The position numbers and the translations under genes are program-made. Source: Dubosiella newyorkensis (lineage in GTDB: Bacteria; Bacillota_I; Bacilli_A; Erysipelotrichales; Erysipelotrichaceae). From it: a stretch of 32,000 nt of DNA. The stretch spans positions 45,656 to 77,655 of the forward strand of contig NZ_MPKA01000065.1 in the NCBI RefSeq assembly GCF_001945605.1, read 5' to 3'. Shown here piece after piece: positions 11,325 through 16,206 of the stretch (positions are counted from its first letter, which is position 1; each line of letters starts with the position of its first letter). The notes below the pieces were generated by a model. The model was not told the DNA's origin and searched no databases. It worked only from the letters and a program-made list of their open reading frames with translations.

Positions 11325-11355
11325 AAAAAGATCGGTCGCTTGGATCGATCTTTTT
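11325..11355. terminator. bidirectional terminator between the DUF1643 gene and the recombinase gene
   Basis: AAAAAGATCG-(11 nt loop)-CGATCTTTTT, a 10-bp stem with flanking A/T runs. Confidence 0.7.
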
Positions 11356-11381
11356 TCAGTATAAGTCGCTTTTCTTTTTTT

Positions 11382-12332
11382 TTAGCTCAGAGTCGATAAT
11401 GCTCTCATAACGAGATCGATATCTTTATTTTCAAGTTCCTGAATAATGTGTAAATAAGTTTTTTGAGTAGTCGTCATGCTGGCATGACCTAATCGTCTTG
11501 CTACACTGGCAGTCGATACACCCGCGAACAATAATAAGGATGCATGGGTATGACGAAGTCCATGGATCGTAATGACCGGAATATTGGCTTCTTTGCAGTG
11601 GCGTTCCAATACATCGTTGACTGTTGAATTGTAAATTTTCTTATTTACAAATATTGGACGATCTTCGGGAAGACCTTGAATCAAGGATGAAAACTGGACG
11701 ACAGTTTGCCAATCGATTTGGATCTTTCGAACTGAAGAGTGGTTTTTCGTGGGTGAAAATCCACCGTTTCCTTTATAATCCCATGTTTTTGATACTGATA
11801 CTGTTTGATGGGCGAAATCGAAATCTGCTGGAGTGATCGCTAAAGCTTCTGAGAAGCGCATTCCTGTTTTCGCAACAAGTAGAATAAACCAATCCCATGT
11901 GATTTCTTCTTTCAAGTAAAGTGTTGATAATAACGTATGCAGTTCGTATTGATTCAAATATTTCAGCTTTTTAGGTCGTGGTTGTTTTCCTTTGATGATC
12001 GCTTTTCGAGTTGGATCTCTAGGAACCAATCCTTCATCGACCGCATCCATGATCGCGCCTTTTAGTTGATGATGAAAGTCCATCGTAGTTTGACGCTCAT
12101 GTTCGATCGCATACTCGTTTAAAATTTGTTGGTATGTGATCCGAGACAAATCACAAAGTTTTAAGTTTGGGGCTAGCTTCCGAATCCACGAAAGACTCAT
12201 ATAATACTTATTCATTGTTACATCTCGGATAGCACCTTTCTTATAAACTTCGATCCATTTTTCAAAATAATCACAAAACAAAATTGTATTAGTTACTTCA
12301 TTAATCATTCTTTTTTCTCCATCTTCGTTCAT
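11382..12332 (-). CDS. tyrosine site-specific recombinase (phage-integrase/Xer family) linked to hsdS cassettes
   Basis: Catalytic signature: AKTGMRFSEAL (Arg I), HGLRHTHASLL (His-x-x-Arg), LGHASMTTTQKTYLH (His/Tyr nucleophile). ATG 12332 shares ATGA with the hsdS' stop. An alternative ATG at 12308 has a GGAG SD 8 nt upstream. Confidence 0.85.
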   Translation of the reverse strand: MNEDGEKRMINEVTNTILFCDYFEKWIEVYKKGAIRDVTMNKYYMSLSWIRKLAPNLKLCDLSRITYQQILNEYAIEHERQTTMDFHHQLKGAIMDAVDEGLVPRDPTRKAIIKGKQPRPKKLKYLNQYELHTLLSTLYLKEEITWDWFILLVAKTGMRFSEALAITPADFDFAHQTVSVSKTWDYKGNGGFSPTKNHSSVRKIQIDWQTVVQFSSLIQGLPEDRPIFVNKKIYNSTVNDVLERHCKEANIPVITIHGLRHTHASLLLFAGVSTASVARRLGHASMTTTQKTYLHIIQELENKDIDLVMRALSTLS

Positions 12333-12829
12333 TGCGACTTATACTGATGAAGGGTGATAAGTTTATCAGCATGATACATAAATTGCCCTATATTAAACTG
12401 TTCATATTTTTGTTGTGGAATTTTTATTATAAAATTTCTAGCAGTTACTCCAGTTATTCCCTTTATGGATGATCCTTGAAGATTTAAATTTCCGTTTAAA
12501 GTCTTGTAACATAAAAACGTTCCAAATAGAGTATCAATATTTAAATTACTAAAGGATATAAAATCTTGACTAGTAGCATAACTATAAGGGAAATATCCAA
12601 CTTTTCCTACACCAACTCTAGTTACTATTGCTATTGAATTTGCAGGAACTTGCTTTGAAGCTGAGTTGTTCAAACCATTTTCAGAAATATACTTTTTAGG
12701 TTTTATATCAAATAATTTCCCCACCACTAAATCAGATGATTGAATCCACGGTAAATTTCCATCCCAATACTTCTTAACTGAAGTTTTTGGAGTACCACCT
12801 CCAAAAAACTTATTAGCAATATCTCCCAA
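12329..12829 (-). CDS. hsdS: Type I specificity subunit half-module (single TRD), 5'-truncated, possibly a silent cassette
   Basis: It has the (A)WEQRRLGDI box, a TRD with the GGGTPKT...YWDGNLPWI motif, and the conserved LITLHQYK end. The frame is open from 12865 but holds no ATG/GTG. The only start candidate is TTG 12829, which has no SD. Confidence 0.6.
   Translation of the reverse strand: MGDIANKFFGGGTPKTSVKKYWDGNLPWIQSSDLVVGKLFDIKPKKYISENGLNNSASKQVPANSIAIVTRVGVGKVGYFPYSYATSQDFISFSNLNIDTLFGTFLCYKTLNGNLNLQGSSIKGITGVTARNFIIKIPQQKYEQFNIGQFMYHADKLITLHQYKSQ
12343..12360. repeat. direct repeat A, copy 1 (encodes the ITLHQ box at the end of hsdS')
   Basis: ACTGATGAAGGGTGATAA is identical to 12906-12923. 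Extended to 24 nt there is one mismatch (12337-12360 vs 12900-12923). Confidence 0.9.
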
Positions 12830-12848
12830 CCTACGCTGTTCCCAAGCA
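12828..12848. repeat. direct repeat B, copy 1 (encodes the AWEQRR box at the start of hsdS')
   Basis: AACCTACGCTGTTCCCAAGCA is identical to 13379-13399. Extended to 26 nt there is one mismatch (12823-12848 vs 13374-13399). Confidence 0.9.
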
Positions 12849-12888
12849 GTAACTTTTTGGTAATTTTAAATTTCACTCACTTATAATT

Positions 12889-13491
12889 TTAATTTTCTAA
12901 CTTACACTGATGAAGGGTGATAAACTTGTCTATATCCAAAAATAAATTCCCGATTTTATTCTGTTCTTCTATACCTGGAATTAGAATAACTTGTTTAAAA
13001 AAATCTTCAGGAACTAATTCGTTCATCATAGTGCCAAGTTTAGTAGATTGATTAAGAATAGGCCTAAATATAGATTCTAAATAGAACAGTTTTTTTGTAA
13101 ACAAAGGATTGAGCATCGATACTGGCCTAATTGATGAAAAACGAGGAGACATTAATCCAATACCCCTAGTATTTACAACAAATCTACCATGAGCAAATTG
13201 CTTATTAGAATGGCCTTCGAAACCTGCATCTCCTATTCTCAATACTTTATAAGACTTAACGGAAGTCTCTGCAGATCCATTTCCATCTTTTTTATATTTC
13301 ATAGTTGCTACGGACAATGTTTTATCAACTGTTATTCCAATTAAATTACGTTCATTATTGATTTTATATAGTTCTCCAAACCTACGCTGTTCCCAAGCAT
13401 CGTTAAAGCCCTTGAATCGAATTTGAGGAACATTAGACTGTTTTTGATGGATTTTTGTACTATTTACTTGTTCATTCTTGAATGTTTCCAT
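12889..13491 (-). CDS. hsdS: Type I specificity subunit, half-size (single TRD), expressed copy
   Basis: ATG 13491 lies 2 nt after the hsdM stop. It has the N-terminal box PQIRFKGFNDAWEQRRFGEL, one TRD, and EEQNKIGNLFLDIDKFITLHQCKLEN* at the end. At 200 aa it is about half of a normal HsdS. Confidence 0.8.
   Translation of the reverse strand: METFKNEQVNSTKIHQKQSNVPQIRFKGFNDAWEQRRFGELYKINNERNLIGITVDKTLSVATMKYKKDGNGSAETSVKSYKVLRIGDAGFEGHSNKQFAHGRFVVNTRGIGLMSPRFSSIRPVSMLNPLFTKKLFYLESIFRPILNQSTKLGTMMNELVPEDFFKQVILIPGIEEQNKIGNLFLDIDKFITLHQCKLEN
12906..12923. repeat. direct repeat A, copy 2 (end of hsdS)
   Basis: Identical 18-mer to 12343-12360, in the same orientation, with a period of 563 nt. 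Confidence 0.9.
13379..13399. repeat. direct repeat B, copy 2 (start of the hsdS TRD)
   Basis: Identical 21-mer to 12828-12848, in the same orientation, with a period of 551 nt. Confidence 0.9.
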
Positions 13492-13493
13492 AA

Positions 13494-16040
13494 CTAGTAC
13501 CCTAATAAGCTTTTAAAAGCTTCCAGTCCTTTCATGTCATATTCATTTCCTGTTAGATCATCGATCATTTTGGCAAGTTCTTGTTCAGTCTGATGGATTT
13601 GATCATCTAAATCATTCAGAGTTTCGCTATATTTATCTTCCAATTGCTCTAATTGTTTTTTAAGTTTTTCCATTACATTTTGAGGGATTTGAATGAGTTG
13701 ATCCATTAATGGACTTATCCACTTTTCATAGACGAGCGCCTTAGCTTCTTCAATTGAAAGAGATTCAAGTTTATCTTTTGTCATAGCATGAATATTTTCC
13801 TTGCTTGTTTTGATTTCTTTTTGGATAGCTTTCTGCTCTTTCAAAAGTTTATTCGCTTCGTTTAATTTCTTAAGCAATTCATCATCATCTTTATCCTTTT
13901 TCAATTCTTTAATTCTATTAGTTAAGTTAGAAGTGACGAATTGTGTTCCTTCCTCATTGGCTAAATTCTCTTTTTCTTCTTCGTCTAAATTTTCAAGAAT
14001 TTCTTGGATTTCATTATCAATTTGATAAATATGTTGCTCTAACTGTTCTATTTTTTTGAATTCTTCGGTAAAATATCGTCGTTCGACCAATTCAAATGGA
14101 ATAATATGACCTTTCCAACCTTCTTGGGTTTCTACGTCTTTTCCATTCTTTTTTTTCATCACTAAATTTGGATCGACTTTGGTCAACGCTCTTTCAGATT
14201 CATTTTGAATATTTTCCAAATCCCCAAGAATGACTTTCCAGTGATTATCTAAAATTTGATATGCCTCATAACGATCGATCAACGAAAACTCTTTTAACTT
14301 ATGAAATAAAAGATTTCCTAAATCATCTTCTTCTCGATTAAGATCGACCTCCATCATCCCTTCGATCAAACGCTGTTTTAAATCCGATTCAAACGAGTTA
14401 GACTCCTTATAAAAAGCTTTCTTAAACGAGTGAATATCGGAATCTTCTTCAAAAATCTGTTTTAAATCATTTCCTTTTACACTAACGTACGAGTCGTTCT
14501 TTTCATTAAATAGTTTCTTTTTTAGATTTGGGAAATTTTTCCAATAGACATCAAATCGAGAAAGTTCCGATTTCGGAATTCCTCCATACATTGAAGCATA
14601 CAAATCCCATGTTTCCGTAGGTTCAGAAGAATCTACATACCGAGGAATATTCAAGTTATAGTCATTTGCTCGAATTTCTTCTAAAGAAACAGTTCGTGAA
14701 AACTTATCTATTGTCTTTCTAGATACCACTACATCTCGAATTCTTTTGATATCTGATGCTCGTAAAACATTACTTTTGCCTGATTTCTCAAAATATTTGG
14801 AACTATCCACGATTAATACATCGTTATTCTCCCGTTTTTGTCGTAATAACATAATAATCGTTGGTATACTCGTCCCATAAAAAATATTCGCAGGAAGACC
14901 GATTATCGTATCGATATTATTATTCTCAATCAAGTTTTTTCGAATCTCGCCTTCCTCGCCACCACGAAATAATACACCGTGAGGAAGAACGATAGCCATA
15001 ATGCCATCCGGCTTTATATGATACAAATCGTGTAATAAGAACGCGTAATCCGCCTTTGTCTTTGGAGCTACTCCATAACGACGATACCGAGGATCGTTTC
15101 TTTTCCCTTCCGGATCCCATTTTTGCGAATAAGGGGGATTAGATACCACAGCATCCACATATAGTGGCATTCCTAACTTTGTTTCATTAGGTGGCCAATC
15201 ATCTTCCAAAGTATCAGCATTTCGAGTAAAGATATTGCTCGGCTTGATTCCACGCATGATCAAGTTCATCCGCGTTAAGTTATATGTATTTCGCTTCAAT
15301 TCTTGGGCATAATACTGAATTCGATCTTTGCTTTCTAGATATCGCGAAGCACTTTCTCCAATATTCAACAACAAAGAACCTGACCCACTCGTCGGGTCGT
15401 ATATTTTAATTTCTTTTCGATCTTTTAAATGGTTCGCGACCAAGTCAGACATCAACACTGAAACTTCATGCGGTGTATAGAACTCACCAGCCTTCTTTCC
15501 AGCATTCGCGGCGAACATTCCAATTAAATACTCATAAACAAAACCAAGCACATCATAGTCCTGCTTACTATCCATTGGAATGTCCTTGATCAGTTGCAAT
15601 AAATTAATGATCGCTTTCGTTTGAGATTGAGCACTATCTCCTAATTTACTCAATCCCGTTTCCAAAGTTTCAAAAATTCCATCAAACACATCGCGATGTG
15701 TATTTGAAATCAAACGACTAAAGGCAGACAATGCTTCACGTACATTTGAAACATCAAATTCCTTTTCATGTTCGATCCAAGTAGAAAACAAATTAGGATA
15801 ACTAATAAAATATCCCAGACGATCTTGAATATATCGAACCGTTTCCTGATCTTCTTCAGTCACCAATGGTAACGTTTCTTCATCCCATCCATCATTAATC
15901 AGAAGTTTTAATTCCTGCTCTGACAAGTATTTGTAAAAAATAAACCCTAGAATATAATCTTTATACTCACTTGCCTCGATTTTAGAACGCATCTGGTTTG
16001 CCGATTCCCATATTTTGGCAGCCAATTGCTGTTTATTCAT
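13494..16040 (-). CDS. hsdM: Type I restriction-modification N6-adenine DNA methyltransferase subunit, long form (848 aa)
   Basis: HsdM_N-like start (MNKQQLAAKIWESANQMR...YILGFIFYKYLSE), AdoMet motif I IYDPTSGSGSLLL and motif IV VVSNPPYS. A ~360-aa E/K-rich C-terminal extension follows. The start is set to ATG 16040, 8 nt after GGAGG; the ORF-track start at 16055 is a TTG. Confidence 0.9.
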   Translation of the reverse strand: MNKQQLAAKIWESANQMRSKIEASEYKDYILGFIFYKYLSEQELKLLINDGWDEETLPLVTEEDQETVRYIQDRLGYFISYPNLFSTWIEHEKEFDVSNVREALSAFSRLISNTHRDVFDGIFETLETGLSKLGDSAQSQTKAIINLLQLIKDIPMDSKQDYDVLGFVYEYLIGMFAANAGKKAGEFYTPHEVSVLMSDLVANHLKDRKEIKIYDPTSGSGSLLLNIGESASRYLESKDRIQYYAQELKRNTYNLTRMNLIMRGIKPSNIFTRNADTLEDDWPPNETKLGMPLYVDAVVSNPPYSQKWDPEGKRNDPRYRRYGVAPKTKADYAFLLHDLYHIKPDGIMAIVLPHGVLFRGGEEGEIRKNLIENNNIDTIIGLPANIFYGTSIPTIIMLLRQKRENNDVLIVDSSKYFEKSGKSNVLRASDIKRIRDVVVSRKTIDKFSRTVSLEEIRANDYNLNIPRYVDSSEPTETWDLYASMYGGIPKSELSRFDVYWKNFPNLKKKLFNEKNDSYVSVKGNDLKQIFEEDSDIHSFKKAFYKESNSFESDLKQRLIEGMMEVDLNREEDDLGNLLFHKLKEFSLIDRYEAYQILDNHWKVILGDLENIQNESERALTKVDPNLVMKKKNGKDVETQEGWKGHIIPFELVERRYFTEEFKKIEQLEQHIYQIDNEIQEILENLDEEEKENLANEEGTQFVTSNLTNRIKELKKDKDDDELLKKLNEANKLLKEQKAIQKEIKTSKENIHAMTKDKLESLSIEEAKALVYEKWISPLMDQLIQIPQNVMEKLKKQLEQLEDKYSETLNDLDDQIHQTEQELAKMIDDLTGNEYDMKGLEAFKSLLGY

Positions 16041-16094
16041 ATCCTTTTCCTCCAATACAAATCTATTTATTAAACATCTCTTCTGTTTATTCCC

Positions 16095-16123
16095 ATTATA
16101 GCAATCTCTAAAATGATAGGCAT
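16095..16123 (-). promoter_or_regulatory. candidate promoter of the hsdM-hsdS-hsdS'-recombinase operon
   Basis: Minus strand extended -10 TGc-TATAAT (16095-16103) with a weak -35 (ATGCCT, 17-nt spacer), ~50 nt upstream of the hsdM ATG. Confidence 0.45.
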
Positions 16124-16163: not shown

Positions 16164-16200
16164 TAAAAAAAAACGAAGCCCTGCTTAACCAAAACTTCGC
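16164..16200 (-). terminator. possible terminator after the alpha/beta hydrolase gene
   Basis: Minus strand GCGAAG-(16 nt loop)-CUUCGU followed by U9. The large loop makes it a weak call. Confidence 0.4.
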
Positions 16201-16206
16201 TTATGT

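Follow-up and report, generated by a model that had tools for sequence, protein, structure and literature searches.

Background

Phase variation of a Type I restriction-modification (R-M) system by excision and reintegration has been described at the tvr/SpnIV locus of Streptococcus pneumoniae, where direct repeats, circular intermediates and shortened loci occur (Kwun et al. 2018, PMC6265443). This is the closest known system to the Dubosiella newyorkensis locus described here. In both, a single strand carries all Type I coding sequences and repeats, the recognition-domain cassettes are delimited by short direct repeats of two kinds, the locus contains a tyrosine recombinase and, embedded in it, a Fic/Doc-family gene, cassettes occupy differing slots among related strains and 'shortened' loci result upon loss of the excised segment. 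The excisable segment of tvr consists of tvrATR (toxin-antitoxin genes and recombinase) plus cassettes while hsdR stays chromosomal, whereas the Dubosiella segment excludes the recombinase and includes fic and hsdR, so that collapse deletes restriction. Each Dubosiella cassette carries both repeats and fits either the N- or C-terminal position, unlike the position-specific cassettes of tvr, and its repeats lie at WEQRR and LITLHQ with DNA-level conservation across phyla.

Inverting Type I hsdS shufflons ('epigenetic invertons') include pneumococcal ivr/SpnIII, Mycoplasma pulmonis hsd and loci of Bacteroides fragilis and Listeria monocytogenes (Huang et al. 2020, PMC7672463). They share with the Dubosiella locus one expressed hsdS, silent cassettes, an adjacent tyrosine recombinase and the use of conserved hsdS sequences as recombination sites, and other members of the same HsdS/recombinase family have inverted cassettes upstream of hsdM (L020, L026, L066, L077, L079). 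The Dubosiella locus, however, has no inverted hsdS cassettes, its sole inverted repeat bracketing the recombinase gene, and it therefore cannot vary by simple inversion, deletions being an inherent by-product. The ivr/M. pulmonis model suggested by a sequence-only reading of this DNA is thus unfit; all cassettes are direct repeats, which makes tvr excision-reintegration the right comparison. In Helicobacter pylori, recognition domains of hsdS reportedly undergo domain movement (DoMo; Furuta et al. 2011, cited in PMC6265443). DoMo likewise places the same recognition domain at the first and second hsdS positions with conserved repeats flanking, as in the L001 [A,A] arrangement, but differs in that it is not known to have a dedicated recombinase or a silent-cassette store, and in its evolutionary, not clonal, time scale.

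We analysed a 32-kb stretch of mouse-gut D. newyorkensis DNA (the window), and consider it probable that it holds the collapsed remnant of a Type I R-M locus that was once complete, shuffled its specificity and was not built to work without restriction.

Architecture of the locus

The ORF list of the window confirmed four co-directional minus-strand ORFs encoding HsdM, two short HsdS-like products and a tyrosine recombinase, and the gene junctions read from the sequence (TAG 13494-13496, ATG 13489-13491, ATGA 12329-12332) were as previously given.

13494-16055, minus strand: hsdM ORF, open from TTG 16055
13494-16040, minus strand: hsdM, 848 aa from ATG 16040
12889-13491, minus strand: hsdS-like ORF 1, 200 aa
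12329-12829, minus strand: hsdS-like ORF 2, 166 aa
11382-12332, minus strand: recombinase ORF
16095-16103, minus strand: extended -10-like element TGcTATAAT upstream of hsdM, read directly
11334-11350, unstranded: short hairpin (stem of 5 bp) between an A-run and a T-run

The hsdM gene likely starts at ATG 16040, which has GGAGG upstream, instead of TTG 16055. Both DPTSGSGS and NPPY are present in the translation, which is identical to P0001 of D. newyorkensis and carries HsdM_N and N6_Mtase domains (Pfam) and a TIGR00497 match at 318 bits, exceeding its cut-off (NCBIfam). Residues 1-486 constitute the Type I methyltransferase, and matches to PDB sequences are confined to residues 2-486; residues from about 487 to 848 form a family-specific C-terminal extension. 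Of the proposed promoter, the TGcTATAAT element stands, but it has no -35 element and for that reason was not called by a generic consensus promoter scan. A terminator at 16171-16202, belonging to the adjacent hydrolase gene, precedes the element. The 'strong' terminator hairpin proposed downstream of the recombinase has a stem of just 5 bp, and could be a bidirectional terminator common to the recombinase and the convergent DUF1643 gene. The island is foreign-looking, as had been noted, with a G+C content of 30-34% over 12001-15000 against 44-48% in the flanks.

A 4,995-bp deletion relative to a sister locus

The same site in GCA_041448535.1 is occupied by hsdM-hsdS-fic-hsdR, two silent hsdS cassettes and the recombinase, with 1 mismatch to the window in about 25 kb of flanks. 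The sole difference is that the window lacks 4,995 bp lying between direct repeats and comprising the 3′ half of hsdS, fic and hsdR. In blastn against L001 and L012, alignments of 13,141 bp (1 mismatch) and 12,016 bp (0 mismatches) overlapped by 498 bp and were offset by 4,995 bp. Slots 1 and 3 of the full locus both match this overlap, which must therefore contain the crossover.

12900-13397, minus strand: deletion junction interval, 498 bp matching slots 1 and 3 of the full locus (blastn against L001 and L012)

Full loci with fic and hsdR are present at this chromosomal site in L001, L005, L008, L010, L101, L102, L113 and L114, their HsdR being 1,040 aa in length with HSDR_N, ResIII and EcoR124_C domains. 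The reported absence of hsdR from the 32 kb was borne out by tblastn with a sister-strain HsdR, which found none. The ancestral order would be hsdM, hsdS (slot 1, CR1, slot 2, CR2), fic, hsdR, a terminator, silent slot 3, silent slot 4 and the recombinase. This order is seen intact in sister strains, CR1 and CR2 being the two conserved coiled-coil regions of HsdS.

Recognition cassettes and their repeats

Every recognition cassette has the 19-nt repeat R5 at its 5′ boundary and the 17-nt repeat R3 at its 3′ boundary, and all copies of both repeats at the Dubosiella locus, like the cassettes themselves, are in direct orientation.

12889-13491, minus strand: chimeric truncated hsdS, 200 aa (slot-1 5′ end, cassette A, slot-3 tail)
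13379-13397, minus strand: R5 copy 1, CTTGGGAACAGCGTAGGTT, encoding WEQRR; 5′ boundary of cassette A
12907-12923, minus strand: R3 copy 1, TTATCACCCTTCATCAG, encoding (L/F)ITLHQ; 3′ boundary of cassette A
12329-12848, minus strand: silent recognition cassette B, slot 4, tail ..LHQYKSQ* (sequence read; Pfam Methylase_S)
12828-12846, minus strand: R5 copy 2, in cassette B
12344-12360, minus strand: R3 copy 2, in cassette B

R5 is present twice in the window against 0 copies expected by chance. Across phyla, both repeats are conserved as DNA sequences, synonymous positions included, TGGGAACAGCGT encoding WEQR in 116/130 cases and ATCACCCTTCATCAG encoding ITLHQ in 83/108. In the slot model the flanks are fixed and the R5/R3 boundaries exact.

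The two hsdS-like ORFs had been taken for tandem half-hsdS modules; they are instead a chimeric truncated hsdS and a silent donor cassette with no proper start. The 200-aa ORF, which has no Pfam match, runs from the expressed 5′ end of slot 1 through recognition cassette A into a silent slot-3 tail (..LHQCKLEN*), its 5′ side matching L001 slot 1 and its 3′ side L001 slot 3. Its conserved coiled-coil helix is short by about 14 residues (register from alignment to 1YF2), functional HsdS proteins having 18-20 more helix residues after LHQ. Methylase_S (Pfam, 7.7e-16) was found only in the 166-aa ORF, the frame of which is open from TGA 12871-12873 with TTG 12829, lacking a Shine-Dalgarno sequence, as its sole start codon. 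Strain L005 expresses cassette B as its first recognition domain. Both ORFs stop 4-5 residues past the LITLHQ motif, and therefore neither is a normal half-HsdS.

Cassette shuffling and recurrent collapse

Seven cassette types (A-G) fill the four slots, and at least six full arrangements were seen among the strains. Alleles with identical HsdM differ by a reciprocal swap of slots 2 and 4, slots 1 to 4 reading E, F, E, G in one and E, G, E, F in the other. Cassettes thus change slots between near-identical strains, and the specificity switching predicted earlier is upheld. Duplicate occupancy, with cassette A in three slots of L001 and E in two slots of L010, cannot be made by purely reciprocal excision-reintegration, so gene conversion or RecA-dependent events also contribute.

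At least five different collapsed hsdR-less forms were identified, some of them with junctions of no more than 19-35 nt: the window ([A][B]), L006/L007 ([C]), L013/L112 ([E][F]), L103 ([C-B]), L105 and L009. Some junctions, a number of them on k=141 contigs, join unlike cassettes, placing the crossover in the 17-19-nt repeats. The same collapse is found in Huintestinicola, a human-gut species, with junction overlaps of 21-35 nt, and L052 and L078 are collapsed-looking too. Each collapsed allele shares an identical HsdM with some full-length allele, an observation neutral on residual function.

The window junction lies inside the 490-bp cassette A, present three times in the sister genome, and a rather unlikely alternative is that the source genome has the full locus of GCA_041448535.1 and that the assembler jumped 5 kb, running from hsdM through cassette A to the slot-3 tail, cassette B and recombinase. 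Such a path through a thrice-present repeat is valid, and a short-read assembler could yield the same join; apart from the join, the window and L001 differ by 1 mismatch over about 25 kb, the 200-aa chimeric product was not found in a large gene collection, and L013, the other two-cassette collapsed form, has a full relative, L113, with the same slot-1 and slot-3 cassettes. However, short-read assemblies with the same HsdM (L002-L004) break at R5 and do not join across, and collapsed forms with 17-35-nt junction repeats, k=141 contigs included, cannot arise in this way, which indicates that real collapse is common. The same collapsed structure is present in two assemblies from different samples, and collapse in two species. 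Perfect 490-bp direct repeats 5 kb apart are also unstable in vivo, RecA-dependent deletion acting on long perfect direct repeats.

Is the hsdR-less form maintained?

The sequence-only reading had proposed a maintained hsdR-less, phase-variable, phasevarion-like methyltransferase whose half-HsdS dimerise and which perhaps borrows an unlinked HsdR. We regard this as quite improbable, although hsdM and the recombinase are intact, hsdM-S-recombinase forms without hsdR recur in several taxa, and half-size HsdS followed by hsdR occur in the family (L019, L064, L079, L122). Truncated or half-size HsdS from EcoDXXI and EcoR124I deletion derivatives can dimerise, and a cassette-A homodimer would mimic the L001 [A,A] HsdS. 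These polypeptides resemble the window ORFs in having one recognition domain and one conserved helix each, but their helix is full-length; natural half-HsdS retain the distal third of the helix that the expressed HsdS here has lost. Restriction-free design is further contradicted by the window being a deletion of the full locus, by the presence of fic and the 1,040-aa hsdR exactly here in most conspecific strains, and by hsdR adjoining hsdMS in 36/40 long-HsdM-family loci of other taxa. Collapsed alleles are in every case recent, each having the same HsdM as some full allele, cassette B lacks start signals, and with only direct repeats remaining any further switch would be a one-way deletion. 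Borrowing is unlikely as well: just one other Type I HsdR was found in the species, that of a second system, and it is 34% identical, the HsdM of that system being 45% identical.

The recombinase and its inverted repeat

The recombinase likely starts at ATG 12308, giving the family-wide length of 308 aa, and translational coupling through the shared ATGA is therefore improbable.

11382-12308, minus strand: tyrosine recombinase, 308 aa (Pfam Phage_integrase, 9.8e-21)
12334-12347, minus strand: inverted repeat, left arm, TCAGTATAAGTCGC, 14 nt, perfect; end of R3 and slot-4 tail
11356-11369, plus strand: inverted repeat, right arm, 13 nt past the recombinase stop codon

Its catalytic motifs are intact (..TGMR.., HGLRH, LGHAS, KTYLH). 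A perfect 14-nt inverted repeat has a chance expectation of 0, and R3-type inverted repeats of 13-34 nt flank the recombinase gene in other taxa and at the paralogous D. newyorkensis locus. Homologues with 70-80% identity adjoin hsdS cassettes in many taxa and phyla, at varied positions within Type I loci, and the family co-occurs with extra copies of R3, the conserved hsdS recombination site (Fisher p = 1.3e-4). The recombinase belongs to a specificity-switching hsdS system, as had been proposed. That it is the integrase of an acquired genomic island carrying hsdMS by chance, with no action on hsdS, is highly improbable: the low G+C content, the position at the island edge adjoining housekeeping genes and the Phage_integrase class would suit an integrase, but there are no convincing direct repeats around the island, the homologues are always beside hsdS cassettes, a paralogue with 87% identity lies in the second Type I locus, and inverted copies of R3, a site of hsdS, sit on either side of the gene.

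A model for collapse and its consequences

In the collapse that we favour, recombination at R5/R3 would shift cassettes from slot to slot, probably driven, by analogy with tvr, by the adjacent tyrosine recombinase through excision and reintegration of circles. With hsdR enclosed by direct repeats, excision without reintegration would delete it permanently. The window would derive from a slot-1 x slot-3 event, with the crossover in R5, R3 or the identical 490-bp cassette A between them. In this event hsdM would have survived intact, alongside a chimeric HsdS that has a single recognition domain and a shortened helix, one silent cassette and the recombinase. Collapse may not depend on this recombinase, as in the L101/L103 lineage an inserted element truncates it before the catalytic tyrosine and both full and collapsed forms are present. 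If this reading is true, restriction by this system has been lost in the strain of the window and methylation by the collapsed system is probably lost or crippled, while the only rearrangements remaining to it would be further deletions, ending at a single cassette.

Gene content of the island

ORF calling identified four co-directional ORFs on the minus strand of the window, coding for a Type I HsdM, two HsdS-like products of 200 and 166 amino acids and a tyrosine recombinase. The island contains restriction-modification (R-M) genes only. The features used below are:

16040, minus strand: most likely hsdM start (ATG), with GGAGG upstream
13497-14603, minus strand: C-terminal extension of HsdM (residues 480-848)
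13379-13397 and 12828-12846: repeat R5, at 5′ cassette borders
12907-12923 and 12344-12360: repeat R3, at 3′ cassette borders
12334-12347 and 11356-11369: perfect 14-nt inverted repeat bracketing the recombinase gene
12308, minus strand: most likely recombinase start (ATG), giving 308 amino acids, the family-wide length

The 853/848-amino acid product was assigned to Type I HsdM through PF12161 (HsdM_N), PF02384 (N6_Mtase, 2.5e-102) and TIGR00497 (318 bits against a cut-off of 243), carries motifs I (DPTSGSGS) and IV (NPPY) in its translation and is 100 % identical to a D. newyorkensis protein. The 316/308-amino acid ORF has a PF00589 domain (9.8e-21) with intact catalytic motifs, and the 166-amino acid ORF a Methylase_S domain, while the 200-amino acid ORF matched no family. 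ORF calls, sequence reading and composition bore out the four-ORF layout, junction details, TGcTATAAT element and low G+C content (30-34 % in the island vs 44-48 % in the flanks) described in the sequence-only reading; the terminator that it called strong, after the recombinase, is a weak hairpin with a 5-bp stem. That reading had also seen no HsdR within the 32 kb, and a tblastn search of the whole window with a genuine HsdR of 1,040 amino acids, from the near-identical sister assembly GCA_041448535.1 (L001/L012), gave no match. Compared with a complete hsdRMS system, the window holds HsdM, with neither a two-domain HsdS nor a linked HsdR. The C-terminal extension of HsdM, about 365 residues, is common to thousands of HsdM proteins ~855 amino acids long. 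It is predicted by AlphaFold (pLDDT 89) to form long helices and two beta-hairpins, with no Pfam family above threshold and no fold match in the PDB (best E = 0.24). An ordinary HsdM of 534 amino acids is also found with the same recombinase and repeat system.

Recognition-domain cassettes are bordered by short direct repeats

Aligning the sequence contexts of the repeats yielded a model with four slots, two within the expressed hsdS (slots 1 and 2) and two silent and near the recombinase (slots 3 and 4). Every slot holds one exchangeable recognition-domain cassette between the 19-nt R5 (CTTGGGAACAGCGTAGGTT, coding for WEQRR) and the 17-nt R3 (TTATCACCCTTCATCAG, coding for (L/F)ITLHQ). Both repeats occur twice in the window (0 expected by chance) and four times in full loci, always in direct orientation.

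Fixed flanks of the four cassette slots (CR1 and CR2, conserved coiled-coil regions of HsdS; t1 and t2, tails)
Slot 1: hsdS 5′ end; CR1
Slot 2: end of CR1; CR2 and fic
Slot 3: terminator hairpin after hsdR; tail t1 (..LHQCKLEN*)
Slot 4: spacer; tail t2 (..LHQYKSQ*), then the recombinase

The 200-amino acid ORF is composed of the slot-1 head, cassette A and the slot-3 tail, and the 166-amino acid ORF, with a TTG as its sole start codon, represents cassette B, silent in slot 4. Both encode one recognition domain, with a helix ending 4-5 residues past LITLHQ. The HsdS of the sister strain is normal (413 amino acids). The conserved helix of HsdS forms the coiled coil holding the M2S complex together. 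Since functional HsdS proteins have 18-20 further conserved-helix residues past LHQ, a stretch that aligns to the long helix of M. jannaschii HsdS 1YF2, the window HsdS appears to lack about a third of its coiled coil, and it is doubtful that it could support methylation. What had been taken for two working half-HsdS modules is instead a truncated chimera and a silent cassette without a ribosome-binding site. An exact look-up of the 200-amino acid chimera in a large gene collection returned no record.

We surveyed the best 80 loci (L018-L097) in GTDB genomes with a long HsdM 55-61 % identical to that of the window, drawn from Bacillota, Bacteroidota, Pseudomonadota, Spirochaetota, Actinomycetota and Verrucomicrobiota; no D. 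newyorkensis genome was among these 80. Of these, 40 have 8 kb or more of downstream sequence; hsdR adjoins hsdMS in 36 of the 40, and a recombinase 70-76 % identical to that of the window is present in 12 and is associated with additional R3 sites (Fisher p = 1.3e-4). The neighbourhood comparison proposed in the sequence-only reading thus speaks against an hsdR-less design. ITLHQ was encoded by an identical 15-mer (ATCACCCTTCATCAG) in 83/108 cases (77 %) and WEQR by an identical 12-mer (TGGGAACAGCGT) in 116/130 (89 %), each across many phyla. Nucleotide identity so far in excess of the protein requirement marks R3 and R5 as sites conserved at the level of DNA inside coding sequence. Many family members carry inverted cassettes upstream of hsdM and are classical invertons, with the Dubosiella and Huintestinicola loci being all-direct variants within the same family.

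The window corresponds to a full locus minus hsdR

At the same chromosomal site, flanked by an alpha/beta-hydrolase gene on one side and DUF1643/ispG on the other, other strains carry hsdM, hsdS (413-440 amino acids), fic (207 amino acids), hsdR (1,040 amino acids, with HSDR_N, ResIII, SWI2_SNF2 and EcoR124_C domains), two short hsdS-like ORFs and the recombinase. The window aligned to the sister assembly over 13,141 bp with 1 mismatch on one side and over 12,016 bp with 0 on the other. As 498 bp of the window (12900-13397) belong to both alignments, with a 4,995-bp offset between them in L001, the window is best read as the L001-type locus without fic, hsdR and the 3′ half of hsdS. It is an otherwise ordinary R-M locus shortened by a recent deletion, or possibly by a collapse in assembly. 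A G+C-rich hairpin with a T-run (gggccgagtattattttcggctctattttt) at L001:17560-17640, past hsdR, insulates the silent cassettes and recombinase in the sister assembly and is gone from the window. Because the deletion removed this hairpin, the window recombinase may be co-transcribed from the hsdM promoter.

The crossover could equally have been RecA-dependent, inside the identical 490-bp cassette A. Since that cassette occurs three times in the sister genome, a short-read assembler might also have taken a legal but wrong path through it; we consider this unlikely, as other short-read assemblies with the same HsdM stop at R5 instead of crossing it, and real collapses are common. Deletion from a full locus leaves little room for an island that is hsdR-less by design, given that the cognate hsdR sits at the same locus in sister strains. 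The presence of that hsdR in the lineage and the doubtful competence of the truncated HsdS likewise speak against a phasevarion-type orphan methyltransferase. Borrowing of an unlinked HsdR is unlikely, as the one further Type I system observed in the species has an HsdR only 34 % identical and an HsdM 45 % identical.

Collapse to hsdR-less forms is recurrent

We identified a number of further collapsed alleles in Dubosiella.

Collapsed Dubosiella loci and their cassettes
L006/L007: [C]; structure shared by two assemblies of different samples
L013/L112: [E][F]
L103: [C-CR1-B-t2]
L105, L009: slot-2 cassette fused to t2

In L006, L103, L105 and L009 the cassettes flanking the junction are unrelated, so that the crossover must, on the evidence of these junctions, have fallen inside repeats of only 17-19 nt. 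As k=141 contigs, L103 and L105 are not open to a mis-join across a repeat of this length. Because the HsdM of each collapsed Dubosiella allele is also found, unchanged, in a full-length allele, these collapses are both recent and repeated. Similar events were found in Huintestinicola sp. from human gut metagenomes (L121-L129), with the order hsdM, hsdS, hsdR, silent cassettes and recombinase, a recombinase 79 % identical to that of the window and an HsdM of 534 amino acids; two of its forms are collapsed and hsdR-less (L124 and L126), with R5 junction overlaps of 21 and 35 nt. A Verrucomicrobiales MAG (L052) and a Peptoniphilaceae isolate (L078) look collapsed as well. One pattern search of JGI metagenome contigs for a slot-1 head followed by a single cassette with any tail, for counts of full and collapsed forms, gave 0 matches.

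Huintestinicola samples sharing one identical recombinase protein have an expressed hsdS of full or half size, with three or four cassettes in full loci. Five loci from several taxa (L019, L039, L064, L079 and L122) carry a half-size expressed hsdS, with one recognition domain and a full-length conserved helix, directly followed by hsdR. These natural half-size genes are presumably products of slot-1 by slot-2 recombination and would give palindromic specificities.

Cassettes move among slots in related strains

Only seven cassette types (A-G) were found, in at least six full and at least five collapsed arrangements. The full arrangements, given as slots 1,2/3,4, include [A,A/A,B], [B,D/C,A], [E,F/E,G], [E,G/E,F], [C,E/A,B] and [A,C/D,B], as well as [../A,C]. 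Those with E, F and G have identical HsdM and differ by a clean reciprocal swap between slots 2 and 4, and one cassette can act as first or second recognition domain. These slot changes, all of them between samples, uphold the proposal of specificity switching by hsdS recombination, with the recombinase serving hsdS variation. Purely reciprocal excision and reintegration is insufficient, and non-reciprocal events such as gene conversion or sister-chromosome exchange must also be at work, because in some full loci two or three slots are filled by one cassette type.

The recombinase and its flanking repeat

The perfect inverted repeat bracketing the recombinase gene (0 expected by chance) is formed by two copies of the hsdS R3 site in opposite orientation. 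Inverted repeats of the R3 type, 13-34 nt long, are found at both of these positions in distant taxa (L055, L041, L078, L066 and L052) and in a paralogous Dubosiella locus (L098:9948-10965), and the orientation of the gene with respect to hsdM differs among loci (reversed in L041 and L078). Together these suggest that the recombinase gene may itself be invertible, possibly as a switch on its own expression. The paralogous locus, a second Type I locus in some D. newyorkensis strains (L098:2500-11000, GCA_948699105.1), consists of an hsdS fragment, hsdR (1064), hsdS (437), hsdM (537), a further hsdS fragment and a recombinase 87 % identical to that of the window; its cassettes are direct, and a 300-nt perfect direct repeat joins the expressed and silent ones. 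An island or prophage integrase, the other role considered for the recombinase, was rejected, as there are no convincing att-type direct repeats at the island ends in the window, no other mobile-element genes, and its homologues are always linked to hsdS.

In one strain lineage (L101:16809-18547 and L103:11836-14231) a mobile element with a 514-amino acid large serine recombinase lies in the tyrosine recombinase gene directly after HGLRH, with loss of the catalytic tyrosine, and both full and collapsed R-M loci carry this insertion. This limits any model based on the recombinase, since both forms occur although it is cut before its catalytic tyrosine; the collapse may be older than the insertion, may depend on the 87 %-identical paralogue in trans or may be recombinase-independent.

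Comparison with known phase-variable systems

To our knowledge phase-variable Type I systems are mainly inverting shufflons, and the pneumococcal tvr locus is the sole characterised direct-repeat system. Our literature searches found nothing on Dubosiella R-M systems or, in the library searched, on direct-repeat hsdS shuffling beyond tvr. In ivr/SpnIII and M. pulmonis hsd, the expressed hsdS shares inverted repeats with silent hsdS copies in the opposite orientation. Neither inverted R5/R3 copies nor an inverted hsdS were present in the window or any Dubosiella locus examined, the 14-nt pair at the recombinase gene being the lone inverted repeat, and inversion-based, ivr-like switching was rejected on this ground. 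With tvr/SpnIV the locus shares several cassettes on one strand, two kinds of direct repeat, a tyrosine recombinase and the placement of cassettes in different slots of related genomes. However, the excisable segment of tvr carries the recombinase and toxin-antitoxin genes, with hsdR outside it, whereas here fic and hsdR are enclosed by the repeats and the recombinase lies beyond the last of them. We conclude that the locus belongs to a tvr-like, direct-repeat variant of phase-variable Type I R-M systems and has recently collapsed. The foreign-looking R-M island of the sequence-only reading, with its recombinase serving hsdS variation, is retained in this interpretation; its hsdR-less design, working half-HsdS, likeness to the inverting ivr and M. 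pulmonis systems and borrowed HsdR are not.

In pneumococcal tvr, excision is directed by direct repeats, and the excised circle is reinserted at a different repeat or, if it is lost, the locus stays shortened (PMC6265443). The best-supported model for the Dubosiella locus is recombination at R5/R3, probably by the adjacent recombinase acting in the same manner. As fic and hsdR sit between the repeats, in the segment from slot 1/2 to slot 3/4, loss of this circle would mean loss of restriction. It is conceivable, if rather improbable, that this placement is purposeful throughout this widespread family of direct-repeat Type I shufflons: excision of fic-hsdR would silence restriction during reconstruction of the specificity subunit and so prevent self-restriction once specificity has changed, and frequent failed reintegration would seed restriction-free sub-lineages as a bet-hedging switch for DNA uptake, the window being one "off" state and not mere decay.

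The direct-repeat architecture is common in gut anaerobes; its recombinase is strongly conserved (70-80 % identical across phyla), as are its recombination sites at the DNA level. Having hsdR between the repeats makes recurrent, irreversible loss of restriction intrinsic to this architecture, a property little described. Annotated "orphan" hsdM-hsdS-integrase loci may for this reason often be collapsed remnants and not epigenetic regulators, which bears on their annotation, on the reading of methylomes and on judging the permeability of strains to foreign DNA.
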